From the NCBI RefSeq assembly GCF_964213995.1, contig NC_135830.1, positions 9,672,001-9,736,000 of the forward strand: a stretch of DNA of 64,000 bases, in the 5' to 3' direction. The notes under the pieces were generated by a model. That model had not been told where the DNA came from and ran no database searches. It saw only the letters and a list, made by a program, of their open reading frames with translations. A program made the translations under genes and the position numbers. Positions within the stretch are counted from its first letter, which is position 1; the number at the start of each line of letters is the position of its first letter. Positions 7,149 through 31,160 of the stretch are shown here, in pieces. The DNA comes from Mustelus asterias. Its lineage: Eukaryota.

Positions 7149-7527
7149 CGGCGTTGGACTGGGGTAAGCACAGTAAGTAATCTCACAACACCAGGTTAAA
7201 ATCCAACAGGTTTATTTGGTAGCACAAGCCACAAGCTTTCAGAGCACTGCCCCTTCATCAGGTGAGTGGGAGTTCTGTTCACAAACAGGGCATATAAAGA
7301 CACAAACTCAATTTACAAGATAATGGTTGGAATACGAGTCTTTAAACGTAATCAAGTCTTAAAGGTACAGACAATGTGAGTGGAGAGAGGGTTAAGCACA
7401 GGTTAAAGAGATGTGTATTGTATCCAGCCAGGACAGTTAGTGAGATTTTGCAAGCCCAGGCAAGTCGTGGGGGTTACAGATAGTGTGACATGAACCCAAG
7501 ATCCCGGTTGAGGCCGTCCTCATGTGT
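7145..7527 (-). mobile_element. Penelope-like element family 1, 3' portion
   Basis: Near-identical to 30345-30727, which is contiguous with a GIY-YIG coding remnant. Confidence 0.8.
7229..7267 (-). ncRNA. Minimal type I hammerhead ribozyme motif
   Basis: Minus strand CUCAC-CUGAUGA-A-GGGGC-AGU-GCUCU-GAAA-GC-UU-GUGG: core boxes, stem II, palindromic AGCU stem III, stem I. Confidence 0.7.
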
Positions 7528-7654
7528 GATTGACAGATCCATGCTCACTGCTTCTTGCCCTGGATGCAGAGAGCTGAAAATTTCCATGCAGGATGCCAGA
7601 CAGATAAATGTCTACATTACTGGAGTAAAAATGTGTGGAATATACAGACCGAAT

Positions 7655-8335
7655 TCACTTCATTTCCTTCAGTTGCTGCAAGTCCCCAACTTCCCCCAGA
7701 ATGAGAAAAGAAATGGAAAGGGGGAAACATTGATTTCCTCCCAGATGTTGAACAGAGGAGGGAGTTTCACTCTGAAGCTCATTGGACAACTTCCGCATTG
7801 TGACGTCACAATAGTGTCCTGCCTGAATCAGCCAATAGGAATCACTCTGCTTCGCGGTGACGTCTCCGGGTTCCAGTTCTCAGGCCCGGGCGCGCGGACC
7901 CAGGAGCCCCGCCCCCACCCATTGTTCCCCTCCCCCTACACCTCCTTGAACCAAGGTTTCCAGGCAACCGGCTGATGGCTCCAGCAAGAGCGAGAAGCCG
8001 CTCAGTGAACTCTCCCTCCCCCCGGCCCAGGACTCCACATGTGCGAGGGAGAGGGGAAGCTGCGCATGTGCGGGGGAGAACCCACCCTCTGATCTTCATG
8101 CTGAGGTGTTGACCAATGGGAAGAGTTGGAGGACCGGAAGGACTCTGGTCTTCCAGCCAATCAGAGTGTGGGCTTTGTGTGAATGAAGATTGATCTTCAG
8201 ACAGACTCAAACTTCCTCCTGTCTCAAACATCTGTGAGTAAAACACTTTCTCTTCAACCCCCTTTCCATTTCTTTTCTCATTCTGGGGGAAATTGGGGAC
8301 TTGCAGCAACTGAAGAGAAAGGAAGTGAATCCAGT
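7655..8335. promoter_or_regulatory. Second CpG-rich promoter module P3 flanked by inverted arms; probable exon 1 of gene B
   Basis: ATTGG/CCAAT boxes, 16-bp palindrome ATTGTGACGTCACAAT (7797-7812), GC box, GCGCATGTGCG, donor GTGAGT at 8234; arms ~7655-7770 and ~8205-8330 are reverse complements. Confidence 0.6.
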
Positions 8336-8389
8336 GAGGGTGCAGACTCTGGAAAGGTTGGCCCAGGTTTCTCGCTCTCTCGAACCAGA

Positions 8390-9575
8390 AAATGATCCAT
8401 TTCTGCCCACTGTTTGCTGTTAGCCAATCTTCTATCCACGCCAATATGTTATCCCCACAGCATGAACTTTTATTTGCTGCAATAACCTTTGATGTGGCAC
8501 CTCATCAAATGTCTTCTGGAAATCTGAGTACAGCACATCCACCGGTTTCCCTTTATCCAATGCCCGATGGGGAATTTTAGAAAATTGAACAACACATCAA
8601 CGATCTCACTCTGTTAAGACCCGAGAATGAAGCCCAGCAGGACCCGAGGACTCATCAGCCCACAGCTCCAACAGTTTGCTGAGGACCACTTCCCTGGGAA
8701 TTGTGCTTTTTCAGAGTTCATCCCACACTTCTGTTTTCTGATTTCCAGCTGTTTCTGAGTTTTAACTGTAACCTCTATTGTGAACACCGAGGCAAAATAC
8801 TTGTTCAATTCATCTCCCAGCTCCTTATTTTTCATTATCAATTCCTGGACTCACTTTCTATTAGACAGTTAAGAAATGAGGTGGAGCAAGTGACTGAAGT
8901 GTCAGTCAGGGAGCACTATTGGGAGCACCAATAGTTTCAAAATAGTTCAGGAAAAAGATAGGACAGGTCCACAGGTCAAGGCCCTAAACTGGAGCAGGGC
9001 CACTTTTGTGGGCATTAGGCAGGATCGAGCAGATGTCGATTAGGTGAGTTTGTTTGAAGGGAAAGGAATGACTGGCAAATGGGAGGTTTTAAAAGTGTGA
9101 TATCAAGAATCCAGGGGCAGTATATTCCTGTTAAGATGAAGGGAAAGAATGGTAAATTTAAGGATCTCTGGCAGACAAGGGACATTGAGGCTCTGGTCAG
9201 GTAAAAGAAGGAAGCATACATTGGGTTTAGGCAATCGGGGACAAGTGAATCACTCTGACTATAAAAAGTGTAAGAAAATACTGAGGAGGGAAATCAGGAG
9301 GACAAAAAGAGGGTATGATATGGATCTGGCAGGTAAGATTAAAGAAAATTCCAAGAGGTTCTATAGCTATATTAAGAGTAAGACGGTGGCTAGAGAGAGA
9401 ATAGATCCCCTTAAAAATCAGTATGGCCATCTGTGTGTGGAGCTACAGGAGATGGGTGAGATTTTTAATGAATACTTCTCCTCTGTGTTTACTGCGGAGA
9501 GCACCATGGGGGCTAAAGAAATAAGGGAAACAAGTGGTGATGTCTTGGGCACACGCTCGTTACTTGGGAGGAGGT
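8390..9575. mobile_element. Degenerate CR1-clade LINE ORF2 fragments (minus ~8390-8860, plus ~8870-9575)
   Basis: LNKYFASVFT and KENSKRFYSYIKSK...IFNEYFSSVFT motifs, typical of the CR1 endonuclease-RT linker. Confidence 0.8.
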
Positions 9576-9589
9576 ATCTGTAGCCTTAT

Positions 9590-9774
9590 AAAAGCAAATT
9601 ACTGCGGATGCTGGCGTCTGAAGCCAAGGGAGAAAATGCTGGAAAATCTCAGCAGGTCTAGCAGCATCTGTAAGGAGAGAAAAGAGCTGATGTTTCTTGA
9701 CGAAATGACCCTTTGTCAAAGCTCTGAAACATCAGTTCTTTTCTCTCCATCCAGGTGCTGCCAGACCTGCTGAG
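9590..9774. mobile_element. Penelope-like family 2 terminal fragment in inverted (fold-back) configuration
   Basis: ~49-bp inverted arms (9647-9696, 9726-9774) around a decayed hammerhead core (minus strand UUGACAA-GGGUC...GAAA). Confidence 0.65.
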
Positions 9775-10256
9775 AATGGGGAGAGAGTGTGTGGGATGGA
9801 GATTTACAGCTTTTGGGGAATGAGAGAGGAAAGAATGTTCCATAGAAATTGTTCTGAATTTCTATCCTGTACTGACACTGATGACTTTTGGAAACTCATT
9901 TTCAGGATATTGAAAGAGGAATCACAGGCCGAAATCTCAAACGTCATGTCTCGGCGTGACAGAATCGTGTTCCTTGGGACCTCAATATCATCGGACTTTG
10001 AATCCAGAAGGAGAAATGATTGTCCAGTCTGTCGATTTGAAAAGATTTGAAATGTCAGTGTGAGTGAAAAAGCATCAACACACTGCCACACTTGAGTGAG
10101 AGTGTTCCAATGCACTGACTAAAGAGCTTTAACCAGTTACACAGTCTGAATAAATATCACACCATTCACAGCGGGTAGAGACTGTAATCTTGTCCTGTGT
10201 GTGGACGAAGTTTCAACTGATTGTCCACCCAAGAGTGAGGCAAGGAAACCTGCACC

Positions 10257-10931
10257 ATGGAGAAACCATGGAAATGTGGGGACTGTGGGAAGGGATACAG
10301 AGCCCCATGTCTGCTGGAAGCTCATCGGCGCAGCCACACTGGGGAGAGGCTGTTCATCTGCCCTCAGTGTGAGAAGGGATTTAATCAGTTCTCCAGCTTA
10401 CGGACACACCAACGAGTTCACACTGGGGAGAGACCATTCACCTGCTCTCAATGTGGGAAGGGATTCATTCAGTCATCCCACCTGCGGACACACCAGCGAG
10501 TTCACACTGGGGAGAGGCCATTCACCTGCTCTCAGTGTGGGAAGGGATTCACTCAGTTATCCAGCCTGCAGACACACCAGCGAGTTCACACTGGGGAGAG
10601 GCCATTCACCTGCTCTCAGTGTGGGAAGGGATTCACTCAGTTATCCAGCCTGCAGACACACCAGCGAGTTCACACTGGGGAGAGGCCGTTCACCTGCTCT
10701 CAGTGTGGGAAGGGATTCACTCGGTTACCCGACCTGCGGACACACCAGCGAGTTCACACAGGGGAGAAACCATTCACCTGCTCTCAGTGTGGGAAGGGCT
10801 TCACTCGGTCATCCACCCTGCGGACACATCAGCCAGTTCACACTGGGGAGAGGCCATTCACCTGCTCTCAGTGTGGGAAGGGTTTCAGCGTTTCATCCCG
10901 GCTGCTGAGACACCAGCGAGTTCACGAGTGA
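10257..10931 (+). CDS. C2H2 zinc-finger protein B, 8 fingers, no effector domain seen
   Basis: Intact 224-aa ORF, accATGG context, TGERPF linkers; acceptor TTTTCAG|GATAT at 9905/9906; fingers 4 and 5 identical. Confidence 0.9.
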
Positions 10932-11184
10932 TGACAGGGGTTGGATTCTGCTGTTATTGTTTCTGCTCTCAGTTGCATCCAGGATTGCATTTTGTTCATT
11001 CTCACAGTTGGTCAATGGGAAGGGTCAGAGGGTTTCTTTGTGCTGGACTGGCCGGTCTCAGCCTCCAGTGGGCTGATGCTCTTTGAACCTTTTTGTGAAT
11101 ACCTGGTTTCAAATGTCACAAGGATCACAGAGTGACAGGGTGTTAGGAAGTTTAGAGATATTGAGTCAGAAGAAAACAGAGGTT

Positions 11185-12212
11185 GGCAGTGCAAAGGTAC
11201 ATTTCTGAATGGAGGGCTGTGACAAGTGACGTTCCTCAGGGATCAGTGCTGGGACTTTTGCTGTTTGTAATATATATAAATGATTTGGAGGAAAATGTAA
11301 CTGGTTTGATTGGTAAGTTTGTGGACGACACAAAGGTTGGTGGAATTGCGGATAGCGATGGGGACTGGCAGAGGATACAGCAGGATATAGATCAGTTGGA
11401 GACTTGGGCAGAGAGATGGCAGATGAAGTTTAATCCGGACAAATGTGAGGTAATGCATTTTGGAAGGTCTAATACAGATGGGAAATATACAGTCAATGGA
11501 GAACCCTTCAGAGTATTCATAGGCAGAGGGATCTGGGTGTACAGGTGCACAGGTTATTGAAAGTGGCAATGAGGTGGAGAAGATAATCAAGAAGGCATAC
11601 GGCATGCTTGCCTTCTTCGGCCGGGGCATTGAGTTTAAAAATTGGTAAGTCATGTTGCAGCTTTATAGAACCTTAGTTAGACCGCACGTGGAATCTAGTG
11701 TTCATTTCTGGTCACCACACTACCAGAAGGAAGTGGGGGCTTTGGAGAGGGTATGGAAAATATTTACCAGGATGTTGCCTGGTAGCATTAGCTATGAGGA
11801 GAGGTTGGAGAAACTTGGTTTGTTCTCACTGGAACAACGGAGGTTGAGGGGGGCGACCTGATAGAAGTCTACAAGATTATGAGGGTCATGGACAGAGTGG
11901 ATAATCAGACGCTTTTTCCCAGGGTGGAAGAGTCAATTACGAGAGGCATAGGTTTAAGGTGCGGGGGGCAAGGTTTAAAGGAGATGTACAAGGCAGGTTT
12001 TTTACACAGAGCGTGGTGGGTGCCTGGAACCCGTTGCCGGGGAAGGTAGTGGAAGCAGATACGGCAGTGACTTTTAAGATGTGTCTTGACAAATATATGA
12101 ATAGCATAGGAACAGAGGGATATGGTCCCCGGAAAGGTAGGGGGTTTTAGTTCAGACGGGCAGCATGGTTGCTCCAGGCTTGGAGGGCCAAAGGGCTTGT
12201 TCCTGTGCTGTA
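11185..12212 (+). mobile_element. CR1-clade LINE 3' fragment (RT domain and 3' UTR)
   Basis: VPQGSVLG, FVDDTK, W-Q-M-x-FN-x-DKC motifs; frameshifted. Confidence 0.9.
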
Positions 12213-12239
12213 ATTTTCTTTGTTCTTCATTCTGTTTGG

Positions 12240-12580
12240 AACATCCCAAATGCCCATCCAATTTCCTTTTTAATTGTTTATTGTCGCTACTTCCTCCACC
12301 CTCGTAGGCAGCGAGTTCCAGGTCATCACCATTCACTGCATCAGAATATTCTTCCTCACATCTCCACCGCCCCCCCCCCCCCGCCCCCCACTCCCCCTCT
12401 CTTGCATCTCTGACCCAAAACAAGAAATCTGTGTCCCCCCTCGTCCTTGTCCCATCAGCTAATGGGAACAGCTTTTCTTTGTCCACCTTATCTAAACCTG
12501 TCAGAACCTTGTCCACCTCTATCAAATCTCCCCTCAACCTCCTTTGCTCCAAGGAAAACAACACCAGCCTGACATTGACA
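12240..12580 (-). mobile_element. Old CR1 3' fragment
   Basis: FSLEQRRLRGDLIEV...LFPL; also present in the inverted paralog at 22150-22320. Confidence 0.75.
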
Positions 12581-12994
12581 ATAAAGAACAAACTAACAGA
12601 ATATGTTACTGTCTGAAATCAAATGGGAATGTTTAATTTCTGTTTTAAAGATATTGTGAATATATTGTCCTGGACAATAAAGGAATTGGAATAACTCACC
12701 TTGGGTGTGGTTGAATGGAATATGTCAATCTGATATCCACCTACAGTCTAGTGAAAGTCTGGAATATGTAGCTGGAACTCCCTTCCTAACAGCACTGTGG
12801 GTGTACGTACACCTCAGGCATTGCAGCAGTTCAAGAAGGCACCCTTGGGGTTGGGGTTGACCATGGCCAAGGCAGCTACATACAGCCACATATTCTGTTA
12901 TAATTGAAGGACTGCAGATTGAATGTGAGGCATTGTGGGACTGGACTATCTTGACCATATTCCTGAGACTGCCCGGAAACTTGTGTCTATTTTA

Positions 12995-14430
12995 AAGAAC
13001 AAAGAACAATACAGCACAGGAACAGGCCCTTCGGCCCTCCAAGCCTGCACCGATCATGTGTTCCGAACGAGACCATCCGTTTGTATCCCTCTATTCCCAG
13101 TCTGTTCATATGGTTATCATTAAAATACGTCCCCTGCATATCTGTATTGAACCTTGCCCCCCCTTACCTTGAACTTGTGACCCCTTCTGTTTGTCGTTTC
13201 TGACCTGGGAAAAAGCTTCCAACTGTTCACCCTATCTATGCCCTTCATAATTTTATAAACTTCTATTAGGCCGCCCCTCCACCTCTGTTTTTCCAGGGAG
13301 AACAACCCTAGTTTACTCAATCTCTCCTCATAGCTAATACCCTCCATACCAGGCAACATCCTGGTTAACCTTTTCTGCACTCTCTCCAAAGCCTCCACGT
13401 CCTTCTGGTAGTGTGGCGACCAGAACTGGACGCAGTATTCCAAATGCGGCCGAACCAACGTTCTATACATCTGCACCATCAGACCCCAACTTTTATACTC
13501 TATGCCCCGTCCAATAAAAGCAAGCATGCCATATGCCTTCTTCACCACCCTTTCCACCTGTGTTGCCACCTTTAAGGTTCTGTGGACTTGCACATCCAGA
13601 TCCCTCTGCGTGTCTATACTCCTGATGGTTCTGCCATTTATTGTATAGCTCCCCCTGCATTAGATCTACTAAAATGCATCACTTCGCATTTATCTGGATT
13701 AAGTTCCATCTGCCATTTCTCCGCCCAATTTTCCAGCCTATCTATGTCCTGCTGTATTCTCTGACAATGTTCATCACAATCCACAACTCCAGCAATCATT
13801 GTGTCGTCCGCAAACTTACTAATCAGACTTGCTACATCTTCTTCCAAATCATTTATATATATCACAAACAGCAGAGGTCCCAATACAGAGCCCTGCGGAA
13901 CACCACTAGTCACAGACCTCCAATCAGAAAAAGACCCCTCCGCTGCTACCCTCTGTCTTCTATGGCCAAACCAGTTCTGTACCCATCTAGCGAGCTCACC
14001 TTTGATCCCGTGAGATTTAACCTTTTGCACCAGCCTGCCATGAGGGACCTTGTCAAATGCTTTACTAAAATCCATGTAGACGACATCCACGGCCCTTCCC
14101 TCGTCAGTCATTTTTGTCACCGCCTCAAAAAACTCAACCAAATTTGTGAGGCATGACCTCCCTCGCACAAAACCATGTTGTCTATTGCTAATGAGGTTAT
14201 TCAGTTCTAAATGTGTATAGATCCTATCTCTAAGAATCTTCTCCAACAATTTCCCTACCACGGACGTCAAGCTCACTGGCCTATGATTACCCGGGTTATC
14301 CTTGCTACCCTTCTTAAATAACGGGACCACATTTGCTATTCTCCAATCCTCTGGGACCTCACCTGTGTCCAATGAAGAAACAAAGATTTCTGTTAGAGGC
14401 CCAGCAATTTCATCTCTTGTCTCTCTCAGT
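12995..14430 (-). mobile_element. CR1-clade LINE (HER1-like) 5'-truncated RT fragment
   Basis: VPEDWRIANV, QHGF, DFSKAFDKV, GVPQGSVLGP, FADDT, RPHLEYCVQFWSP; AAAGAAC-type tail at 12994-13010. Confidence 0.92.
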
Positions 14431-15969
14431 AACTGGAAGTCCCTCCCTAACAGCACTGTGGGTGTACGTACACCTCAGGCATTGCAGCAGTTCAAGAAGG
14501 CACCCTTGGGGTTGACCATGGCCAAGGCAGCTACATACAGCCACATATTGTGTTATAATTGAAGAACTGCAGATTGAATGTGAGGCATTGTGGGACTGGA
14601 CTATCTTGACCATATTCCTGTGACTGCCCGGAAACTCATGTGTCTATTTTAGTTTAAAATTGAGGATTTCTGGGAATAATGTCTCAGATGGAGGCCAGAT
14701 TATCAAATTCAGTTCTCTCAAATAATTCATAGACAAGAAACAAGTATCTCCAAGAGAAAACTGTCACCTCATTCATCTCATCGAGACTTCCCTTTCACTC
14801 AAATCTTCATAAACACCCAAATGTATGGATTCCTTTAAACTACACTTTCAGGAGTTCTCGAGAATCTTTAGAGTTAAATAAATCATTAAATATTCTCATA
14901 ATATCTTTTAACAGAAACCAAACATTTCTGTTTGATTCCAGGCATTATCAACTTTGTTCTTTCCCTTAAACACCAGGTAATTTCCATTTTAAATGCTTGA
15001 AATAGCAACTCACATCAGATATTTATCAATTCCAATCTCAAAAGCAGGCTTGTTGGCTTTCTGAAAAGTAAAGTCTTTTATTCTCTGCTTTAATTCTCAA
15101 AACTGCTGCCTTCACTCGGATTGTTTGTGAGTGAAACCGTCATCACCTGTTTAAAAAAACCCCATAAACAATCCATCTGGCTCTGGCCAAGATCCCAGTG
15201 AGTTAATGTGTCCAATCACAGGTTACATTAAAAAACAAAGGCTGTGTGGAGATTTATAAAAATGAGCTGTCTGCTGAAAGGGTTAACTTCTCTGTGGAAC
15301 CGAGAGAGGCGGGGAGTGGGCAGAGGAAACTTGGCAATTCCATCAACTTACATAATTTAAAAAACTTCTCTCGTGTTATTTTCTTCAATTTTGTTCAAAT
15401 TTCATCTCTTTTATCTATCCTTTTTTGAACACCAATTTCAATTTTCAATATTTGCTACTTAATCAAAGTTGAAAGAAATACTTTGTGAAATGTGTTGTTA
15501 ACTGAATCTCAACAATTTTAACTCAAATGTTTTGGAAAGTTGGAACTGGTTTGCTGCCAAACTGCAGCCTTATCTTTCTGTTTTGGGAGCAAATTGTCCT
15601 TCACAATTCTAACCTTGAACAAGTTAATTTCAAACCCAAATACATTCCTTTCACATTTTAGTACAGTCTGAATTTATTTCAAACAGAAACTCACGGCTGT
15701 TCAAATTAAATTAATTTTTATTCCCTTTCCAAACTAATTCTTCGAATCTGTGATGCCTGCAAACAACGCCCTGCCTCAACAATTATGACTCAAATGTACG
15801 GTATTCCTTCAACTGAGCAAACCAACTTGGAGTAAGCGTTGTGGATCATGACGGTGCAAAGGTCATGGCTAACCTCACACACCTGCATTCCCTTATCACA
15901 CAGGAGAGGCAGAGGAGAGGGAGGAGTGCTTTCAGTGATTCTTTTTTTGGAGAAAACAACTACATCTGC

Positions 15970-16490
15970 TCACTGGTGACTGATTTGTGTCTCAGGTTGT
16001 TTGATGTTAGCTAAACATTGGGAGTGGTCTGCTTCAGGGGAGGTGTCACTTTGTGGCTGAATTACCTTTCTCAAAGTCCCCATGGCATCTTCTAACTCTT
16101 CACTTGATTTGATATTTTCTGATTGTAAATCAATATCTTGTTCCAGAGTTTGGCCGAACAGCAGTAGATTTTTCTGAGCTCCACTCACCCTATCATCTGC
16201 CCCCTGTTCCCAATGTAACTGATTGTCCAGGTCAGACGTGCTCTCCTGCCAGCAATCAGCTCCATTCTGCAGCTTATCCACCAGTTCCCTCAACTCTTTA
16301 TATTTTGTACTCAGCTGTGAGGCAACAGGTTTCCAATGTAACTGTAAATTAATTTATTCTGGACTTTTTCCAACTCGCTATTTCCTTTCTGAATCTCTTT
16401 AGAAAACCTATCAAGGACCCGCTCGTAATCTCCGTCAAATTCTTCTCCACCTCCCAGGGTATCTTTTATTCCTGATGCCGTTGACTCCAT
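15970..16490 (-). pseudogene. Disrupted coiled-coil-like ORF remnant, possibly retroelement gag/ORF1
   Basis: Two consecutive E/Q/L-rich reading frames separated by a stop and frameshift; no recognisable motif. Confidence 0.25.
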
Positions 16491-16810: not shown

Positions 16811-17167
16811 GGGTGACATGGTGGCACAGTGGTTAGCACTGCTGCCTCACAGCGCCAGGCATTTAATTCCAGCCTTGGGTGAGTGTCTGTGTGGAGTTTG
16901 CATGTTCTCCCTGTGTCTGCATGGGCTTCCTCCGGGTGCTCCAGTTTCCACCCACAGACCAAAGATGCCCAGGTGCGGTGGATTTGCAATGTTGAATTCC
17001 CTCTTAGTATCCCAAGCTGTGTGGGTTAGATCGGTTAGCCATGGTAAATGTGTGAGATTACAGGGATAGGGCAGGGGAGAGGGCCTGGGTAAGGTGCTCT
17101 GTTAGAGAGATGGTGCAGACTCGATGGTCCGAATGGTCCCTTCTGCACTGGAGGGATTCTATGATTC
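16811..17167 (+). mobile_element. HE1/V-SINE-like SINE
   Basis: Head, core and tail present. Confidence 0.85.
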
Positions 17168-17597
17168 AATGAACACAGGAATGGTCAGAATTATTTCACA
17201 TGTCCCAAATTTTAAATAACCATTACAATTAAAACTCTCTCATACTCACATGTGTGAGTTTGAATCCGGATTAAAATTCCCACATGTTTAGCAAAGTATC
17301 CTGGAATCATGTCTCTGGCCAGTAAATGTGGCTCTAGGTTCACAACTTTTGTGAAAAAAAGCTTTATTAATTACACGTCCTTGATTTAAATCTGTTTGAC
17401 ATGTGAGTATGAGAGAGTTTTAATTGTAATGGTTATTTAAAATTTGGGACATGTGAAATAATTCTGACCATTCCTGTGTTCATTGAATCATAGAATCCCT
17501 CCAGTGCAGAAGGGACCATTCGGACCATCGAGTCTGCACCATCTCTCCAACAGAGCACCTTACCCAGGCCCTCTCCCCTGCCCTATCCCTGTAATCT
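17055..17597. repeat. 199-bp near-perfect inverted repeat (17055-17253 and 17399-17597)
   Basis: Arms are reverse complements with one mismatch seen; each spans a SINE tail plus unique flank. Confidence 0.9.
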
Positions 17598-19694: not shown

Positions 19695-20003
19695 GGGCGA
19701 CACAGTGGCACAGTGGTTAGCACTGCTGCCTCACAGCGCCAGGGACCCGAGTTCGATTCCCGGCTTGGGTCACTGTCTGTGTGGAGTTTGCACATTCTCC
19801 CCGTGTCTGCGTGGGTTTCCTCTGGGTGCTCAGGTTTTCTCCCACAATCCAAAGATGTGCCGGTTAAGTGGATTAGACATGCTAAATTGCCCCTTAGTGT
19901 CAGGCGGACTAGCTAGGGTAAATGGGGATAGGGCCTGGGTGGGATTCTGGTTGGTGCAGATTTGATGGGCCAAATGGCCTCCTTCTGCACTGTAGGATTC
20001 TGT
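19695..20003 (+). mobile_element. HE1/V-SINE-like SINE
   Basis: Head, core and tail present. Confidence 0.9.
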
Positions 20004-20829
20004 AACTCTGTGATAACTTCTATTACAGAGCTTATAGGGTTCAAAAGTTCCTTTCCACTGTCTGCTGAGCCATCCCTTATCAGTAAAAAATGAATAATTC
20101 TATTCATTCTAATGTCTGGGAAGCAAGTATTTTCTATAACTCATACTGATAAAAACTGTGTTCTGTGGCTTCACCGTTCTGAAAGAATGTGGCCTGTCTC
20201 ACTCAGCTTTTATCCCATTATGCTTTAGGGCAGTCTGCAGTTTGGCCAAGGTATACATTTTAGTACAAAAAGTATATTTAAATCTGAAATACATGTTTAA
20301 ATTCTCTACCAGTGGTTATATGTGTCTCTATGCAGACAGTACCTTTGTATAATATAAATAAGGCACATTGTGGTCCTTATTCTACATTAGTCTAAGTCAG
20401 TCCACCCTGTTTCAATAGCCTTTATTAGTTTTTAATCTCAAGGTATTCTGAACCCCTCTAACAAAATAACTTTAAAAAATTTAAAGTTTATAATTAGTCT
20501 CAAGTAAGCTTACATTAACACTGCAATGAAGTTACTGTAAAAAATCCCCTCTCTAACAACAAAAGAAACTTGATTTTAAACTTCATCTATGAATTTTTTT
20601 GTTATATTCTCAACCTATTTTAATTTGATCAGTTTTTGTTAGGGATGGGTAATTTCTGTTCTTTATAAACTGGTTCACTCATTTTGTTAATTCTACATGG
20701 GCTCGGAGAATCAGAACCCAGACTCTATCATCCATATCCTTTTTCTCCTTTTGCCACCACTTTCTCTCTGTTTTGCGGGAGGATCGTGGGGATTCCAATC
20801 AGACCGAATCATTTATTATAAAAGTAAAA

Positions 20830-20972
20830 CAAAAACAGAAAATGCTGGAAAATCCCAGCAGATCTGACAGTATCTGTAGGGAGAGAATCGAGCCAACGTT
20901 TCAAGTCTGGAAGACCCTTCATCAGAGCTCCTATGAAGTGTCACCTCGACTCAAAATGTTGGCTCTATTCTC
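20830..20972 (-). mobile_element. Penelope-like family 2 terminal fragment plus a short inverted copy
   Basis: CAGAAAATGCTGGAAAATC...TCAGAGCTC, followed by an opposite-strand decayed copy ending TGTTGGCTCTATTCTC. Confidence 0.7.
20890..20930 (-). ncRNA. Minimal type I hammerhead ribozyme motif
   Basis: Minus strand GAGCU-CUGAUGA-A-GGGUC-UUCCA-GACUU-GAAA-CG-UU-GGCUC; stem I GAGCU/GGCUC, palindromic ACGU stem III. Confidence 0.75.
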
Positions 20973-21334
20973 AAATCGTTTTATCGTTAAGTTTCTTGTT
21001 CTTAGTTTCCAAAAGACAGGTAAGAAATCTGTCTGGTGCCCACTCGAGCTCTGATTTGTCACTGGCCATGCTTGGGTAAGATTATAACCATTAGAATCCA
21101 CTCTTAGAGGTCCACTTTTCAGTCCAGTGCTACTTGGAGTGTACCGTCACTTCACCGACTACCGGGTCACAAGACCTTCACAGTTCTTATCACAAATTTA
21201 TGATAAAATAATGTAAACATGCCTGAAAACGCTTCACTTCTTCGCTACCTACCACTGTTTATTGATTAGTCAGCCCCCTTTTTTACAGATTCCAGGATCT
21301 CAGCTGCTGAACACCAGCCGGTCCCGCAATAATC

Positions 21335-21656
21335 TCATAGAATCTCGACAGTGCAGAAGGAGGCCATTCGGCCCATCAAGTTTGCACCAACCACAGTCCC
21401 ACCAACCCTATCCCCATAATCCCATTCATTTACCCTAGCTAGTCCCCCTGACACTAAGGGGCAATTTAGCATGGCCAATCCATCTAACCTGCACTTCTTT
21501 GGACTGTGGGAGGAAACCGGAGCACCTGGAGGAAACCTACACAGACACGGGGAGAATGTGCAAACTCCACACAGACTGTGACCCAAGCTGGGAATCGAAC
21601 CCGGGTTCCTTGCGCTGTGAGGCAGCAGTGCTAACCACTGTGCCACGTGCCACCCC
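21335..21656 (-). mobile_element. HE1/V-SINE-like SINE
   Basis: Reverse-complement copy. Confidence 0.9.
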
Positions 21657-22424: not shown

Positions 22425-23015
22425 TCACTCGTGAACTCGCTGGTGTCTCAACAGGTGGGATGACTGAGCGAATCCCTTCCCACACTGAGGGCAGGTGAAT
22501 GGCCTCTCCCCAGTATGAATGTGCTCATGTGCCCGCAGGTTGGATGAACAAGCGAATCCCTTCCCACACTGAGAGCAGATGAATGGCCTCTCCCCAGTGT
22601 GAACTCGCTGGTGTATCCGCAGGTCAGATGACCGAGTGAATCCCTTCCCACACTGAGAGCAGGTGAATGGCTTCTCCCCAGTGTGAACTCGCTGGTGCCT
22701 CCGCAGGCTGGATAAATGACTGAATCCCTCCCCACACTGAAAACACGTGAACAGCCTCTCCCCAGTGTGAACTCGCTGGTGTGTCAGCAGGTTGAATGAC
22801 TGAATGAATCCCTTCCCACACTGAGAACACATGAACGGTCTCTCCCCAGTGTGAACTCGCTGGTGTCTCTGCAGGTTGAATGACTGAGTGAATCCCTCCC
22901 CACACTGAGAGCACATGAATGGTCTCTCCCCAGTGTGGTTGCGCCGATGAGCTTCCAGCTCATTTGGGTATCTGTATCTCTTCCCACAGTCTGCACATTT
23001 CCATGGTTTCTCCAT
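22425..23015 (-). CDS. C2H2 zinc-finger protein C, 7 fingers; inverted paralog of B
   Basis: accATG at 23015 (MEKPWKC), intact ORF; acceptor CACAG|GACAT at 23366/23365; flanks homologous to those of B. Confidence 0.9.
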
Positions 23016-24119
23016 GGTGCAGGTGTCCTTGCCTCTCTCTTGTGTGGACAATCCGTTGAAGCCTCGTCCACACACAGAACACGGGTACAGTCTCTCGCTG
23101 CTGTGAATGATGTGATATTTATTCAGGCTGTGTAACTGGTTAAAGCTCTTTAGTCAGTGCGCTGGAACACTCTCACTCGAGTGTGGCAGTGTGTTGGTGC
23201 TTTTCCAGTCACACTGATGTTTGAAATCTTTTCAAATCAACAGACCGGACAATCATTTCTCCTTCGAGATTCAAAGTCCGATGATATTGAGCTCCCAAGG
23301 AATATGACTCTGTCAGATCTGACATGACGTTTGAGATTTCGGGCTGTGATTCCTCTTTCAATGTCCTGTGAAATTAGTTTACAAAAGTCATCAGTGTCAG
23401 TACAGGATAGAAAGTCAGAACAGGATTCTATTTAAAAATGAAAGTGGATGGGCACTTGAAGGAAATAAACTTTCAGGAGAATGGGGATATAGAGTGGGAA
23501 TGGGACTGGAATGTTATACAGAGAGTCAGCATGGACTCGAGTTACCAAATGTATTCCTTCTGTGCTGTAATGACTTTATGACTGGAAATGTATAACATCG
23601 CTACAGCATTATATTACAATGCAAGAAATAATAATAAATACAGAAACATAAATAATTTATCTAATCTGGGTACCATATAATAACACTAGACATATCTCTG
23701 TCCTATATTAATTTACTGTCCCCTTAAATATCAGCCATCTCCTGCCCTTTAATTGTGAACATTAGGAAAGAGACCATCCTTTTAGACAGAAAGAAGATTA
23801 ACGTTTCAGGGTGGGCAGAATGAATTACAGGGAATAAAAATGAATCAGATTTTGTTGGTTAATATAAGCTCAGAAGTGGAAGGGAAATGATCTCCAGTGG
23901 AAGAGAAACAGTTCCTGAACATTGTAAGACTAAGCTGGTCACTCAGCAGTGAATAGAGTTGTGAAGTGGTAAAAACCTCATCAAGACATAGCTTGTGGAA
24001 ATAATAGTTAAAATACACCCATTATTAGAGGCAGAGGAAGGTAGACAATGGCAGAGAGCTGATCAGGGAGGGCAGAGGTGAAACAGAGAAATGGATGGTC
24101 GTTTAAAAATTCATAAAAA

Positions 24120-25370: not shown

Positions 25371-25733
25371 TGTTGGCTGCATCAGCATCTATTGCCCATA
25401 ACTCATTGCCCTTGAACTGAGTGGTTTGCATTGCTGGGGGATGTGGTAATTTCCTTCTTTAAAGGACATTATTAAATTGGATGGATTTTTACAACAATTG
25501 TCATCAATGGACTTCTAAGTCTAGATTTTTACTGAATTCAAATTTCAACATCTGCCGTTGTGGGATTCGAACCCAGGGTTCACAGTGCATTGACCTGGAT
25601 CCCTGTATTACTAATCCAATAACACTATCACTGCACCATTGCCTCCCCATCCATGGTAAAGGAGTCACAATAGCCCGAGATCCATGGAATCAGAGCATGC
25701 TCTAAATTTAAATTAATGCTCACTAACACTCAC

Positions 25734-25838
25734 CTCAAAACAATTTCACTGTTTTCACATTTTAAAATCTGCAGCAGCTGAAAAGATCTCAGAGAGATTG
25801 ATGTCCGGGAAAAATTTTGCAATCTTCAAATCTTCTCC
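25734..25838 (-). other. Probable non-coding 5' exon of gene C
   Basis: TTTACAG|GGAGAAGATTTGAAGA...GAAAACAGTGAAATTGTTTTGAG|GTGAGT; homologous to 45399-45515 with both splice sites kept. Confidence 0.55.
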
Positions 25839-26197
25839 CTGTAAATGAGGAAAGTTATAGGTGTAATTCAAGGTTAGAAATTCAAGACAGACAAACATTT
25901 CTTTTGGTCTGAGTTTGCTGTGTGTAAATCTTTCCCTTCTAATCCCCTGTAAAAGGAGTTTCCAAAATCCATCAGCATCTGTCCAGGATAGAGATTCAAA
26001 ACATTCACTCCTCCTTTAACCTGGCACAGAATTACTTCAGCTGGGACAAAATTGCAGTGGAGGCAGTTCAGAGAAGATCCAGTTGGTTGATTCCTGAAAT
26101 GAGGAGTTTTATCTTTCAGGTTGAGCAGCTTGGGCCTCTACTTTTTGGAGTTCAGAAGACTGAGAAGTAATCTTAATGAAACATCTGGGAATTTAAG

Positions 26198-26513
26198 GGC
26201 GGAACAGTGGTTAGCACTGCTGCCTCACAGCACCAGGGTCCCAGGTTCAATTCCGGCCTTGGGTCACTGTCTGTATGGAGTTTGCACATTCTCCCCATGT
26301 CTGCGTGGGTTTCCTCCGGGTGCTCTGGTTTCCTCCCACAGTTCAAAGATGTGTGGGTTAGGTGGATTGGCTATGCTAAATTGACCCTAGTGTCAGGGGG
26401 ATTAGCAGGGTAAATGCATGGGGTTGTGGGGCTGGGGCCTGGGTGGGATTGTGGTCGGTACAGACCTGATGGGCCAAATGGCCTCATTCTGCACTGTAGG
26501 GATTCTATGATTC
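26198..26513 (+). mobile_element. HE1/V-SINE-like SINE
   Basis: Head, core and tail present; sits within degenerate CR1 (26050-26820). Confidence 0.88.
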
Positions 26514-26821
26514 ATATGATATAAGGTGCTTGACAAGGTAGATGCTGAGAGGATGTTTCCTCTGGTGTGGAAATCAAGTAAAAATAAAGGATCTCAAATT
26601 TAAGATGAAGAGAGATCTTTTCTCTCAGCGGGTTGTTGATCTTTGGAACTCTGTCTTCACCAGTGAGTATTGGAGGCAGGTCATTGAATATATTCAAAGC
26701 TGAGGTTTTGATCCACAAGAAAGCCAAGGGTATGGACGGGGTGGGGGTAGCAAAGTAGACATGATCTTATTGAATGATGCAGCAGGCTCGATGGGCCCAA
26801 TGACTGGCTCCTGTTCTTGGA

Positions 26822-27275
26822 TAGCTGCGCATGCGCCCTGCTACCTATTGTCCCTCTGAAGATCGAGGTTCTGAACCAACCCCTGAAACCACGCCCATTA
26901 TGACCCGTCACAGACAGCAGCGCATGCGCCCTCCGTCTCCGCTGAAACAAGATGGCGGCCGATAACCGGGGCCTGTTCCAGGGATAAAAGCCTGGGAGCT
27001 GTAAACTCGGGACCTGCAGGGTCTATTCGGGCCGTGCGGCCTACAGCGGGTGTTTCGAAGCCATACCTCCCTCCCTATCCCGACTCCCGGCTCCATTTCT
27101 CCCACAGCCCAACCGACTCACCCGCAGAAAAATGTGCCAACTCCCGCACTCGCAAGACTCCGAGCAAAGTGACATTGCGCACGCTCCAGATATAGCACTG
27201 CGCCTGCGCAATAGGCTCCTGTGGAATGAATAGGACACTGTCACACCCGCAGGGGCAGCTGGGAATTAACGGCGT
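26822..27275. promoter_or_regulatory. CpG-rich promoter module P2
   Basis: GCGCATGCGC twice (NRF1-like), AAGATGGCGGCC (YY1-like) near 26949, minus-strand donor CGG|GTGAGT near 27121; inverted homolog at 44110-44480. Confidence 0.7.
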
Positions 27276-27759
27276 CATTGTCAAAGACGATAATAGAAAA
27301 TTATCTTGTGCAATTAAGATCAAATAATTTAAAAAAATGTATTCCTCGGAATTTGTGCACTGCCATTCTCCATTTCTAAAATTGATTTAAACCAGTGCTC
27401 TCCTGTGGGAATACCCCGAGTTTTAAAAACTTTTCCCACTGGTTTCTTCCCCTCTCTGCTCTCCTGAAGGTGCTCATACTGGTTGGGTAAATCCCACAGA
27501 GACTGGTTTCTTTCACTTTCTTTCCCCTGATGCTGAATATTCTGTTTTATGGAATGATACATCACAGATGGAAACCATTTTGCTCATCCTGCCCAATCGG
27601 GCTGTCTTTAAGATCTATCCAATTAATCCCACAGCCTTGCTGGCAGAGTGAGAACAATATCTATATACTGCAGCAGTGCAGGAGGTGAATGGAAAATGTT
27701 TTCCAGTTGCACACCTCTCAGACACACTCACCCCTAGAAAGATAAATTGGCCTGTGTAC

Positions 27760-27970
27760 TAAGAACAAAGAAAATTACAGTACAGGAACAGGCCCTTTGG
27801 CCCTCCAAGCCTGCACCAACCATGCTGCCCGATTTAAGTAAAACCCCCTACCCTTCTGGGAACCATATCACTCTATTCCCAAAGTATTCATGTACTTGTC
27901 AAGACGCCCCTTAAAAGTCACTACCGTACCTGCTTCCACTACCTCCCCCGAGTTCCAGGCACCCACCACT
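27760..27970 (-). mobile_element. CR1 3' end fragment
   Basis: Reverse complement of 11975-12225. Confidence 0.85.
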
Positions 27971-28420
27971 CCCCGCTGTGAATGCTGCGATGTATTTTCA
28001 GGCTGTGTAACTGGTTAAAGCTCTTTCCACACTCAGTGCACTGGAACACTCTCACTCGGGTGTGTGTCTCGGTGCTTTTCCAGTCACACTGAAATTTAAA
28101 ATCTCCTGAAGCAGACTGAACAGAGAAACATTTCCATTCTGGATTCAAAGGTCGATAATATTCAGGTCCCGACGAATTGAGGACTCTGTCAGATATTGAT
28201 GTGACGTTTGGTTTGAGATTTCTGTCTGTAAATCCTCACCTTCTAATATCCTGTAAAAGGAATTTACAAAAGTCATCAATGTCAGTACAAGATAGAAATT
28301 CAGAACAGACAGTTCAAGTTTCTATGGAACATTCTTTCCTCTCTCATTCCCCAAAAGCTGTAAATCTCCATCCCACACACTCTCTCTCCATTCTCACTCT
28401 GCTGTATCTAATATTCACCC
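27971..28420 (-). pseudogene. Zinc-finger gene relic D (acceptor module and dead-finger leader only)
   Basis: Acceptor TTTTACAG|GATAT at 28251/28250; [26 protein letters not shown], then CR1; the array is absent. Confidence 0.75.
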
Positions 28421-28732
28421 TCCCAATTCTCCTAAAGATGCTAATTGAGGCTGATTGACAGATCCATGCTCACTGCTTCCTGTCCTGGACACAGGGAGCT
28501 GAAAATCTCCATGCAGGCTGCCAGACAGATGTCTATAATACTGGATAAAAGTGTAATATACAGGACATTATTTGAATAGTGACAGAGCAGGGATTTGAGG
28601 AAGATTTATACTTGGGTAGGGAGAGCACATGCTCTGGAACTCGCTGCCTAAAAGGATGGTGGAACAGAAGATGAATGGGAAATACATCTCATGATATAGT
28701 GGGATCTGGAAAGCAGAATTTATTTCCCTTTC

Positions 28733-28828
28733 CAAAAGAGAAAATGCTGGAAAATCTCTGCAGGTCTGGCAGCATCTGTGAGGAGAGAAAAGAGCTGACA
28801 TTGAGGCCGGATGACCCTTTGTCAAAGC
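28733..28828 (-). mobile_element. Penelope-like family 2 terminal fragment with 12-bp target-site duplication
   Basis: TATTTCCCTTTC at 28721-28732 and 28829-28840; decayed hammerhead core. Confidence 0.75.
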
Positions 28829-28984
28829 TATTTCCCTTTCTTTCCTTCTCTGCCACCGCTCTGCCTCATCAATAAGACATTGGGACTCAGAGGGTTGATG
28901 CAGTTTGATGGACAAGTTGTCTCCATTCTGAACAATGGGGAACAAGCTCCTCCCACTCAATGACAACATTGCCCCCTAAAAGGA

Positions 28985-30090
28985 TGACGGCTGTGCATGC
29001 GCCTTCTTGCATATTGCCCCCAATAAAGATGGCGGCCGTGAGCGCGGCCCGAACATGAGGAGCTGCGGTACCGCTCGGTACAAACTGGGTCCGTTGGAGG
29101 TCCCTCTACGGAGGGATCTCCCCCAATTACGTCGGGGACCTGGGGTGGAGGGTGATGCATGCAGCAGTTCCGCACAACCGTAGGATTCACTGGTTCACGG
29201 GCTCCGAAGACTGCCCTTTCTGCGGCCTTGTGGAGTCCATGGACTATGTCTATGTTGAGTGTCTTAGGCTGCACTCCCTTTATGTTTTCCTAAAGAGCCT
29301 TTTGTTGATGTTTTGTCTGCATTTCAGTCCCACGCTCCTGATCTACGGACACCTGGTGCGGAGAGGGGAGGGTCGGGATGGCGACCTCCTTGTGAACCTG
29401 CTCCTGGGCCTGGCGAAACGCGCCATTTACTGGTCCAGGCTGCGGGCGATCGAGGGGGCCGTCCATCCTGACTGTCTTCCCCTCTACCGCGGCTACGTTC
29501 ACGGCCAGGTGTCCCTGGAGAGGGAGCATGCGGTGTCCACGGGCGAGGTTGACGCTTTCCGCGCCCGCTGGGCACCGCAGGGGTTGGGGTGCATTATTGA
29601 CCCTAATAATCACATTTTAATTTGATGTTTTTAAGTTTCCTTTGTACTTTGATTTCTGTTCGGGCTGTTCCCCCTCCTTTTTGGGGAGCTGCCCCTTTTA
29701 CTTTGTCCTGAATTAATCTGAGTTTGTTTACTTGGTTTGGTTTGACCTAAAAAGAGGACAAACTGGGTCCGTGAAGCTCTTTACCGAGGTTCACGGCTGA
29801 CACAACCTGCTTACGCAGCGTTTCCGTCCACCCGCGAGATCCCTCGCCCCCTCCGTACCGTCAATCACCGCTAACCTATCTCCGAGCCGAAAAAACAGCC
29901 CCGTCTCCGTCGCCATTACCCACACTGCGCATGCCCCAGTCAGAGCGGGCCCCGCCCCTCATTCACTGTGATTGGTTGGAGGACCAGCCTCTCCCACTCG
30001 GACCTCCAACCGCGCCCCTTGTCTCCCCATTGGTCCACGCTGCCGTCAATCAGCCGGGCATTGTGACGGTGACTTGCTGCTTGTCCAATA
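28985..30090. promoter_or_regulatory. CpG-rich promoter region containing an inverted P1 copy (29890-30090), split by the Tx1-like insertion
   Basis: GTCGCCATTACCCACACTGCGCATGC...CCCGCCCCTCATTCAC.GTGATTGGTTGGAGGACCAG matches the reverse complement of 6190-6490; AAGATGGCGGCC near 29026. Confidence 0.65.
29095..29757 (+). mobile_element. L1/Tx1-like LINE 3' end, 5'-truncated
   Basis: C-terminal CPFCG..ES....EC zinc motif (ORF 29152-29625), T-rich 3' UTR, short A tail, 15-bp TSD ACAAACTGGGTCCGT (29080-29094, 29758-29772). Confidence 0.8.
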
Positions 30091-30103
30091 ATAAGTGACA
30101 GAG

Positions 30104-30275
30104 TCTCAGTGTAACAATGACACACACAGGCTCCAATACAATCAGAGTGGGGATGGAGCACAGAGACAACACAGCAAAGCACTGACTTACTCTCAGTGTA
30201 ACAATGACACACACAGGCTCCAATACAATCAGAGTGGAGATGGAGCACAGAGACAACACAGCAAAGCACTGACTT
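30104..30275. repeat. 87-bp tandem duplication (2 copies)
   Basis: TCTCAGTGTAACAATGACACAC... at 30104 and 30191; the junction sequence recurs at positions 1-26. Confidence 0.9.
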
Positions 30276-30335
30276 CAAAACAGAAAATGCTGCAAAACCT
30301 CAGCAAGTCTGACAGCAACTGTGGAGAGAGATTCC

Positions 30336-31160
30336 ATGAAGTGGAGATGCCGGCGTTCGACTGGGGTAGGCCCAGTAAGAAGTCTCACAACACCAGGTTA
30401 AAGTCCAACAGGTTTATTTGGTAGCACAAGCCATAAGCTTTCGGAGCGCTGCCCCTTCATCAGATGAGTGGGAGTTCTGTTCACAAACAGGGCATATAAA
30501 GACACAAACCCAATTTACAAAATAATGGTTGGAATGCAAGTCTTTACAGGTAATCAAGTCTTAAAGGTACAGACAACGTGAGTGGAGAGAGCATTAAGCA
30601 CAGGTTAGAGATGTGTATTGCCTCCAGCCAGGACAGAAAGTGAGATTTTGCAAGTCCAGGCAAGTTGTGGGGGTTACAGATAGTGTGACATGAACCCAAG
30701 ATCCTGGTTGAGGCCGTCCTCATGTGTGCGGAACTTAGCTATCAGTCCCTGCTCAGCGACTCTGCGTTGTTGTGTGTCATGAAGGCCGTCTTGGAGAACG
30801 CTTACCCGAAGATCAGAGGCCGAATTCTATGAATGCCTGTGACTGTTGAAGTGTTCCCCAACAGGAAGAGAACACTCTTGCCTGGTGATTGTCGAGCGCT
30901 GTTCATTCATCCGTGGTCGTCTCGTCTGCATAGTCTCCCCAATGTACCATGCCTCGGGACATCCTTTCCTGCAACGTATCAGGCAGACAACGTTGGCTGA
31001 GTTGCAAGTGTATGTACCGTGTACCTGGTGGATGGTGTTCTCACGTGAGATGATGGCAGCCGTGTTGATGATCCGGCACGTCTTGCAGAGGTTGCTGTGG
31101 CAGGGTTGTGTGGTGTCGTGGTCACTGTTCTCCTGAAGGCTGGGGAGTTTGTGAGACTTA
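30336..31160 (-). mobile_element. Penelope-like element family 1, 3' fragment with GIY-YIG endonuclease remnant, nested in a family 2 fragment (30277-31208)
   Basis: CKTC...CNSANVVCLIRC..C...YIGET...R..E.........PVGEHF; AGAGATTC direct repeat at both sides. Confidence 0.88.
30431..30468 (-). ncRNA. Minimal type I hammerhead ribozyme motif (best preserved copy)
   Basis: Minus strand CUCAU-CUGAUGA-A-GGGGC-AGC-GCUCC-GAAA-GC-UU-AUGG; same strand as the GIY-YIG frame. Confidence 0.8.

Follow-up and report, generated by a model that had tools for sequence, protein, structure and literature searches.

Predicted minimal type I hammerhead motifs in decaying copies of an abundant Neptune-type Penelope-like element of sharks

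A 64,000-nucleotide stretch of the Mustelus asterias genome (the window; contig NC_135830.1, positions counted from its first letter) contains short motifs that resemble hammerhead ribozymes. What are these motifs, was their fold selected, and what might it do? A preliminary description had reported three hammerhead motifs, and all three were found at the positions and with the letters given there. The cores lie at 7237-7261 (minus strand, copy 1), 30439-30463 (minus strand, copy 2) and 53721-53745 (plus strand, copy 3). They are not in tandem, with 23 kb between them and one on the opposite strand. The core CUGANGA ... GAAA ... UH is exact in copies 1 to 3 and in two copies of a second family (family 2).

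Motifs this short might be chance matches to the core in repeat-rich DNA. The bare core CUGANGA..GAAA was found 13 times in the window with 10.2 expected, which is not above chance. The covariance-model search proposed in the preliminary description did not help its case: Rfam gave no hammerhead among the ten window matches listed at E ≤ 5. The folding z-scores of seven motifs were also unremarkable (+0.58 to -1.55). In contrast, the full minimal-hammerhead descriptor, which was drawn up after the motifs had been seen, matched five times in the window versus a mean of 0.007 in 300 dinucleotide shuffles (maximum one per shuffle). Furthermore, the position of the motif in the Penelope-like element (PLE) is fixed, and unrelated metagenome contigs have the same layout. 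Short of biochemistry, the descriptor count and the cross-family covariation described below rule out chance matches, an explanation that we regard as extremely improbable. As judged from the letters, copies 1 to 3 contain genuine minimal type I hammerhead motifs of an ordinary kind, in PLE copies that are decaying. The related features of the window are as follows.

6386..6470, plus strand: copy 5, tail only.
7146..7528, minus strand: copy 1, 5'-truncated PLE fragment (last 17 ORF codons, pLTR, hammerhead, tail), 92.7% identical to 30348-30728 over 383 nt.
7229..7265, minus strand: minimal hammerhead of copy 1, predicted cut between 7233 and 7232; pair 2.1/1.1 is C-G (7262/7232).
7477-7527, minus strand: ORF end of copy 1, tblastn match to protein P0012.
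9631..9775, minus strand: degenerate family 2 copy with inverted tail, the hairpin behind sub-threshold Rfam miRNA matches.
20832..20972, minus strand: hammerhead mini-copy of family 2, core 20899-20925, with the palindrome ACGU; an inverted partial copy adjoins it on the 5' side.
28734..28829, minus strand: degenerate family 2 mini-copy between 11-nt direct repeats.
30277..30334, minus strand: tail fragment of family 2, adjacent to copy 2 on its 3' side.
30337..31151, minus strand: copy 2, 5'-truncated PLE fragment, the longest in the window.
30337..30373, minus strand: PLE 'tail' bounded by two classes of 3' end with about 35 nt between them; loose ends fall at 30373-75 and close to 30341, the latter at the edge of the stretch compared with public-run contigs.
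30431..30467, minus strand: minimal hammerhead of copy 2, predicted cut between 30435 and 30434; pair 2.1/1.1 is U-A (30464/30434).
30494..30500, minus strand: TATA-like word, followed 29 nt downstream by an initiator-like A at 30469 (putative transcription start); candidate words at the level of inspection.
30677..31150, minus strand: CX4CX2C linker zinc finger and C-terminal GIY-YIG-type endonuclease remnant with an in-frame stop, 75% identical to P0012 residues 489-643.
31164..31206, minus strand: family 2 motif fragment adjoining the 5' end of copy 2.
35089..35162, minus strand: copy 4, 3' half of the motif (triplet CUA) and proximal tail, within a tRNA-like SINE.
39171..39470, minus strand: second coding fragment of the same PLE family, without hammerhead.
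44694..44784, minus strand: family 2 hammerhead mini-copy, core 44753-44779; pair 2.1/1.1 is U-A, palindrome broken.
53684..53716, minus strand: distal tail piece in inverted orientation, fused to copy 3 at its 5' end.
53714..53813, plus strand: copy 3, mini-copy from a related subfamily, made up of hammerhead and tail; motif at 53714-53756, triplet CUC, C·C at 2.1/1.1.
60116..60216, plus strand: degenerate family 2 mini-copy.

The window copies end at both tail sites, and inverted pieces occur at 53684, 20931 and 9725. The miRNA-like Rfam matches at 9.65-9.77 kb were assigned to a fold-back PLE copy, not to a miRNA. An origin of copies 3 and 5 from one duplicated insertion was unsupported; their tails differ and their distal flanks are unmatched.

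The coding remnants identify the element. The endonuclease fragment in the window is 87-90% identical to its best relatives, which are Mustelus asterias proteins, and 75-90% identical to proteins that carry a reverse transcriptase (RT) upstream. Of 35 protein candidates, 34 were relatives at E ≤ 0.001, several with an RT domain, and the longer ones contain DKG in the alignment. The linker finger CX4CX2C is present in 10 of 11 aligned rows (CX5CX2C in none) and, by inspection, in P0022 and P0028. Most relatives have the CCHH endonuclease motif, with Q for the first H in copy 2 and P0020. P0001 and P0003 matched Pfam GIY-YIG at E 2.5e-4 and 7.6e-4, just under the cut-off; the window's own endonuclease fragments matched no Pfam or NCBIfam family. 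No PLE RT was found in the window, and the RT ORF at 13641-14474 was rejected as a candidate (best E 0.087 to P0012).

Family contigs numbered 163,784, 67,127 and 4,984 in three public runs; run X15, only guessed to be RNA, was used for letters only, and X21 (6 reads) was left out. A motif scan matched three metagenome contigs and none of the viral or genome contigs. The protein-based locus search gave one of nine candidates in genome contigs (L004, which ends 30 nt past the stop, before any motif) and none of 39 in viral contigs. Matches of 18-mers from the tail to 47 prokaryotic contigs and one viral contig were taken as chance matches and left unused.

Neptune PLEs (PMC8557442) share the C-terminal GIY-YIG domain, a CX2-5CxxC linker, CCHH in relatives, 5' truncation, and an adjacent inverted piece plus a 30-40 nt tail. 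As described by Craig (2021, PMC8557442), this linker is present in Neptune and Nematis and absent from Penelope and Poseidon; the Poseidon clade, to which the Anolis element of Frangieh et al. (2024, PMC11167929) belongs, thus lacks the linker finger, whereas the shark element has one. Neptune and Poseidon have been found in vertebrates (Li et al. 2026, bioRxiv 10.64898/2026.07.22.740005). By its protein sequence the element is classified as a very abundant Neptune-type PLE of sharks, the choice of Neptune over Nematis resting on the linker and the vertebrate host.

The hammerhead lies about 210 nt after the endonuclease stop, and both copies 1 and 2 have it in the pseudo-LTR (pLTR); loci L002 and L003 have a similar coding remnant upstream of the motif. 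This position and the anatomy support the initial assignment as minimal type I hammerheads of a PLE pLTR with a palindromic stem III word. The palindromic word 15.1-16.1 is AGCU in 5/7 motifs, ACGU in one and broken in one. Stem II comprises 5 bp, and an extra base (A) stands between 9 and 10.1 in all seven motifs. H17 is never G in the eight readable motifs. The family majority triplet is CUA (53-83% of depth in public runs), and that of copy 3 is CUC, not CUU. Among the rows listed, the core varies most often at the free position 7 or at CpG sites. According to standard hammerhead numbering the cut is predicted after GAAAGCUH.

Stem I of copies 1 and 2 consists of 4 bp, the last one a U·G wobble, with the outer C opposite C; over the alignment of seven motifs, 91.4% of stem I cells are paired. 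For copy 3 a different stem I of 6 bp had been described. Six pairs do exist, but only if the C·C mismatch at pair 2.1/1.1 is skipped. Its outer bases GAG (53714-16) double as the junction with the inverted tail piece. We did not accept the extra pairs as a pure junction artefact; GAG fits the inverted tail and a genuine arm alike. Stem II had been described as kept while its loop varies. The loop does differ, but the stem is inexact: in copy 1, C11.1>U turns G10.1-C11.1 into a G·U wobble by CpG decay; like this change, the AGU versus AGC contrast in the loops of copies 1 and 2 is a CpG transition. Overall the 10.1/11.1 pair is G-C in four of seven motifs and G·U in three, including copy 1.

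Vienna energies, in a model that ignores core tertiary contacts, show no preference for the active fold in copies 1 and 2 (stem I probability 0.01-0.05) or for a dimer. With core contacts ignored, two monomers are more stable than the double-hammerhead topology, by 6.3-9.3 kcal/mol for four window motifs and by 1.9-2.5 kcal/mol for L001 and L002.

Minimal hammerheads (min-HHR) of metazoan PLE pLTRs (PMC4209133) share the type I topology, a stem I of 4-5 bp, the extra base before 10.1, G10.1-C11.1, the palindromic 15.2/16.2 without a stable stem III, and occurrence mostly as single truncated copies. Those of Schistosoma differ in a stem II of 7-8 bp (PMC4209133) versus 5 bp in the shark window. 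PLE minimal hammerheads were reported in fish Xena, Poseidon and Neptune, coelacanth, Xenopus and reptiles (PMC4209133); the main text of Cervera and De la Pena (2014, PMC4209133) names no sharks as far as compared, and its supplements may list them. Non-LTR retrozymes (Li, Clavereau, Pollet 2026, bioRxiv 10.64898/2026.07.22.740005), found in one chondrichthyan genome too, also consist of non-coding pLTR-derived units with type I hammerheads. However, they are defined as tandem arrays, whereas the window copies are dispersed monomers, two with PLE coding sequence; no tandem units with complete hammerheads occur in the window, which has one head-to-head pair at 20.9 kb. Published activity is low or absent, one of nine Xenopus dimers having been cleaved (bioRxiv 10.64898/2026.07.22.740005).

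Was the fold selected? The preliminary description had pointed to a swap in stem I, and pair 2.1/1.1 beside the scissile bond is indeed C-G in copy 1 and U-A in copy 2. Its own caution about the statistics was justified, a single swap picked post hoc being weak evidence, and as a record of selection the swap is not established: it is a minority state, and copy 3 is broken there (C·C).

Copy 2 may derive from a minor source element with a compensated U-A pair, which would record selection on stem I; we give this slightly less than an even chance. Of 33 motif sites outside CpGs, copies 1 and 2 differ at just two, and these two pair with each other (p = 0.015 if two changes are assumed); the chance that two independent mutations give the swap is about 0.7-3%, uncorrected (0.7-2.9% from the flanking transition rate over 9-11 pairs). 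Family 2 has U-A or U·G at this pair. Non-C at 2.1 amounts to 10.0, 5.0 and 14.1% of depth in the three runs and, in two of them, exceeds the level at most other sites with a minority letter in copy 2 (0.7-15%). However, the swap was chosen among several copies, the listed rows show copy 2 with the minority letter at six or more further sites, and the U-A class makes up at most about 5.5, 5.0 and 5.9% of depth. The marginals at 2.1 and 1.1, which are unlinked frequencies per site, disagree (10.0 versus 5.5, 5.0 versus 40.9, 14.1 versus 5.9; a subfamily shorter by 7 nt may have raised the 40.9).

Just short of evenly likely, too, are two independent neutral transitions in a dead copy that fell by chance on partner bases. 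The motif differs at least as fast as its flanks (4 of 37 nt between copies 1 and 2 versus 22 of 344 outside), genomic copies lose the catalytic G12 at the rates of CpG sites (22, 3 and 15% of depth), and many repeats were on offer for a post hoc pick. Against this stand the nominal chance of 1-3% and the fact that neither change is at a CpG. Compensation without selection could also arise by fold-back copying at stem I, with one arm serving as template for the other. Inverted junctions do occur at the stem I 5' arm in three window copies and in 6 of 15 listed joints, but these joints lie 1-4 nt off the stem I register and are rare (27 and 11 contigs), and upstream of copy 2 there is normal pLTR without inversion; we consider this route improbable. 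The U-A pair of copy 2 goes back, at about equal likelihood, to a minor source subfamily or to two changes by chance. The genomic copies themselves show no sign of constraint after insertion and decay neutrally.

That the structure was selected in the active element, as originally proposed, is supported by covariation across families rather than by the swap. Seven selected sequences from about five lineages were aligned (A3); the alignment omits L003, whose motif is the same as that of L001, along with copies 4 and 5 and five family 2 copies that are degenerate or partial, and L001 and L002 were recovered with a pattern fixing stem II and AGCU. Across these motifs 95.2% of cells pair, compared with 74.4 ± 3.4 after shuffling, and the covariation score was 0.687 versus 0.298 shuffled and at most 0.195 when slid. 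Both sides change in 7 of 12 pairs, mostly via family 2; among family-1-like motifs two pairs clearly changed on both sides. Four extra traits listed for PLE min-HHR (Cervera 2014, PMC4209133) are all present: the extra base 9/10.1, G10.1-C11.1, the palindromic 15.2/16.2 and compensatory changes between families. The alignment therefore supports a fold selected in active lineages.

Short copies bear on the function of this fold. Six of ten begin within 7 nt 5' of the core, which is the stem I 5' edge, and none clearly at the cut site; thus their templates would have been mostly uncut. The start of copy 5 falls downstream of the cut site, at most about 13 nt from it. In the mechanism that we propose, minimal type I hammerheads reside in the pLTR of a Neptune-type PLE, and the window copies are 5'-truncated insertions decaying neutrally. 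By analogy with the known family, the ribozyme of the source element would lack a stable stem III and may cleave slowly after GAAAGCUH when the AGCU words of two motifs pair or when the element's protein aids folding. Reverse transcription would start in the tail, 60-95 nt downstream of the cut site; consequently, copies spanning the scissile bond would come from RNA that had not been cut there or had been re-ligated. In Anolis carolinensis, the Poseidon element (PMC11167929) likewise has two RT start sites that define the tail, a hammerhead upstream of both, and uncut RNA as the main template. It differs in that its ORF starts inside the hammerhead, whereas in the shark element the ATG appears to follow the tail in a loose-end consensus.

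Alternatively, the motif may be kept mainly as a structure at the template RNA's 5' end (start site, fold-back or second-strand priming, protein binding), with in vivo cleavage incidental. The copy starts at the stem I edge and the TATA-like and initiator-like words just upstream, of which L002 has a similar pair 31 nt apart, agree with this. In the Anolis study, catalytic mutants left in vitro insertion unaffected and, as reported there, no RNA-seq reads ended at the cut site (PMC11167929). However, the Anolis motif cleaves with protein (PMC11167929), the start of copy 5 leaves room for some cut templates, and unrelated families have retained the catalytic core, the NUH rule and the palindrome, a conservation that would be needless for a purely structural role. 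We consider this alternative unlikely, at roughly one chance in four. Our preferred reading, hammerheads in the pLTR of an abundant shark Neptune-type PLE with a fold selected in active lineages and cleavage as a predicted part, is very probably correct. A more tentative, rather doubtful extension places the hammerhead at the extreme 5' terminus of the template RNA, just behind the TATA and initiator words. Priming in the first tail of uncut RNA would then give hammerhead-plus-tail mini-copies of about 100 nt with inverted junctions at the palindromic stem I 5' arm. During insertion the motif would serve, still uncut, as a 5'-terminal and priming structure, cleavage being held off until later.

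PLE hammerheads have been known in vertebrates since 2014, and compensatory changes were already reported then (PMC4209133). Their in vivo role has been called unclear (Craig 2021, PMC8557442), and cleavage is dispensable in vitro (Frangieh 2024, PMC11167929). A literature search, to which most subscription papers, Repbase/Dfam and supplements were outside the scope, found no paper on shark PLE hammerheads. The enormous copy numbers in sharks permit counting of copy starts relative to the cut site and of linked changes per subfamily. If the extended model is true, they would make the in vivo role of PLE hammerheads testable from genome sequence alone.

The preliminary description had reported three minimal type I hammerhead motifs in a Penelope-like element (PLE) family, here family 1, and these were found as described and correctly named: copy 1 (7229-7265, minus strand), copy 2 (30431-30467, minus strand) and copy 3 (53714-53756, plus strand). 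The bare hammerhead core occurred 13 times in the window with 10.2 expected, which is chance level. The full descriptor, comprising the core, both stems (I and II) and the UH rule and drawn up with the motifs already known, detected five motifs versus 0.007 on average over 300 shuffles, namely the three copies and two motifs of a second hammerhead family (family 2). H17, the base before the predicted cut, was U, C or A in 8/8 readable motifs. No hammerhead was among the 10 Rfam matches listed for the window, presumably because the motifs are without stem III. Hammerheads of this kind have been known since 2014, and those of the window are real. The family 2 motif is followed by a pyrimidine run ending in CAG (e.g., 44735-44755, minus strand), which resembles a 3' splice site. 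Introns are known in PLE pLTRs.

Three metagenome contigs shared the motif layout with other stem I arms, UUCAC/GUGAA in L001 and L003 and UUCUC/GAGAA in L002, the second stem I pair being changed on both sides between them. All three are marine and carry Neptune-like PLE pieces; that of L002 seemingly lies within unrelated AT-rich sequence, and this contig may be chimeric. Family 2 differs in stems I and II and has the palindrome ACGU in place of AGCU. Over seven motifs, chosen by pattern from about five lineages and leaving out eight partial, degenerate or duplicate copies, 95.2% of cells were paired versus 74.4 ± 3.4 after shuffling. Two-sided changes, owed mostly to the contrast between the families, occurred at 7/12 pairs, and the covariation score was 0.687 versus 0.298 for shuffled motifs and at most 0.195 for slid controls. 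This cross-family pairing is better evidence for the fold than the C-G/U-A swap flagged between copies 1 and 2. Core variation among the rows listed affected the free position 7 (16-35%) and the CpG at C11.1-G12 (G12>A, 3-22%), and is decay of dead copies.

Copies 1 and 2 differ at 4/37 motif sites versus 22/344 flanking sites; thus, the motif was unprotected once inserted. Two of the four motif differences are CpG transitions (loop AGC/AGU and C11.1>U). Stem II had been described as kept while its loop varied; the loop indeed changes, but C11.1>U weakens the conserved first stem II pair of copy 1. The other two differences constitute the swap at pair 2.1/1.1, the stem I pair at the scissile bond. 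The U-A of copy 2 is with equal probability a subfamily mark or the chance result of two independent changes. For two independent changes to strike partner bases p is 0.015, and the flank substitution rate gives 0.7-2.9% for such hits, which speaks for a subfamily mark. Against this, the swap was singled out after the fact, and in copy 3 the pair is C·C. In contig counts weighted by depth and taken from other samples (three runs; per site, without linkage; 40 of 198 rows listed), the majority base was C at 2.1 (90, 95, and 86%) and G at 1.1 (94.5, 59, and 94%, the 59% possibly skewed by a subfamily that is 7 nt shorter). By these counts a U-A class could make up no more than 5-6% of depth; the marginals of 2.1 and 1.1 disagreed. 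The swap, proposed as a sign of selected structure, is present but a minority state, and adds little.

Copy 2 represents a PLE 3' end with the following coding remnant:

30677-31150, minus strand: CX4CX2C linker and GIY-YIG-type endonuclease, interrupted by a stop

This endonuclease fragment was matched by 34/35 candidate proteins, several with an RT domain, and the longer relatives contain the DKG motif. The nearest named relatives came from Mustelus asterias (87-90%), followed by Scyliorhinus, Heptranchias and Chiloscyllium, pointing to a probable shark host. According to Craig 2021, the linker finger rules out Penelope/Poseidon; therefore, the element is assigned, by this finger, as a putative Neptune-type PLE. 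Contigs of three public runs stacked on 30340-30720 (163,784; 67,127; 4,984). Their loose ends formed two clusters, one at 30373-75 and one near 30341 at the edge of the stretch compared, and the 3' ends of window copies fall at both 30373-75 and ~30341. These two clusters agree with the 30-40 nt tail separating two RT start sites in Frangieh 2024. Family 2 pieces flank copy 2, a motif fragment 5' (31164-31206, minus strand) and a tail fragment 3' (30277-30336, minus strand), as though copy 2 had landed within a copy of family 2. A 1.3-kb PLE fragment in a bacterial symbiont assembly (L004) is probably host contamination.

The window is a repeat-rich C2H2 zinc-finger gene cluster of vertebrate type (Pfam) with these further features:

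4043-5312, 10150-11086, 22425-23153, 33583-34863, 39995-41428, 46202-47083, 50863-52056, 56721-57500, 63200-64000: C2H2 zinc-finger exons, 84-bp periodicity (3 by Pfam, others by similarity)
13641-14474, minus strand: reverse transcriptase frame, 278 aa (RVT_1, E 1.8e-39)
313-650, 1573-1916, 6982-7151, 16814-17178, 19695-20017, 21327-21655, 26198-26520, 31329-31629, 35004-35348, 48050-48393, 54243-55154: tRNA-headed SINE, ~330 nt, many copies
6743-6936, 30096-30275, 48746-49110: minisatellite-like tandem repeats (window self-comparison)

The reverse transcriptase frame was rejected as a PLE RT, being unrelated by comparison; it resembles a CR1/L2-type LINE. The SINE, presumably HE1-like, adjoins or encloses copies 1 and 4 (copy 4: 35089-35162, minus strand, 3' half of the motif plus tail). 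Within ~300 nt of each of three paralogous CCAAT/GC-rich promoter-like blocks (6071-6470, 29918-30422, 53684-54111) lies a family 1 insertion, in differing arrangements, possibly reflecting target preference or open-chromatin bias.

Lacking a stable stem III, the motifs would need two copies pairing their palindromes, or a helper, for activity. Cervera 2014 and the review PMC6765202 describe stem III as unstable and measured rates as low. Frangieh 2024 reports that the Anolis motif cut only with the element's protein and that cleavage was dispensable for in vitro insertion, and Li 2026 reports cleavage in only 1/9 Xenopus dimers. Copies 1, 2, and 4 carry a 7-nt tandem duplication directly after the core (7219-7236 and 30421-30438, minus strand); other subfamilies are without it (loose ends at 30431 in public-run contigs). 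The duplication is predicted to form a hairpin that would sequester the palindrome together with the 3' stem I arm. This may represent an off-state or simply a by-product. Because of this rival hairpin, the active fold of copies 1 and 2 is not favoured by the calculated energies (P(stem I) 0.01-0.05), and the double-hammerhead topology is calculated to lie 6-9 kcal/mol above two monomers, in an energy model taking no account of core contacts. Since the copies are widely separated and not arranged in tandem, there is no reason to suppose action in place.

Six of ten short copies of both families start no more than 7 nt upstream of the core (53.7k, 20.9k, 9.7k, 28.8k, 44.8k, 60.1k), the other four within or downstream of the motif. 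This clustering has p ≤ 3e-4 under a uniform null, post hoc and with boundaries set by eye. An inverted piece precedes 3/6 of the copies starting at the core, an 11-nt direct repeat flanks 1/6, and family 2 copies have no upstream sequence in common. Strand switches ending at 30467-30471 made up 6 of the 15 joints listed (of 150), in 27 and 11 contigs. A putative promoter pair consists of a TATA-like word and, 29 nt further downstream, an initiator-like A at position 30469; in L002 the two words of a comparable putative pair are 31 nt apart. Arkhipova 2013 (PMC3846280) describes rotifer pLTRs with TATA and TCACT and palindromes at inverted junctions, and PMC2377424 an internal TATA-less promoter in Drosophila Penelope. 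The simplest reading of these sequence features is that the RNA of such elements would start at the hammerhead and be copied uncut.
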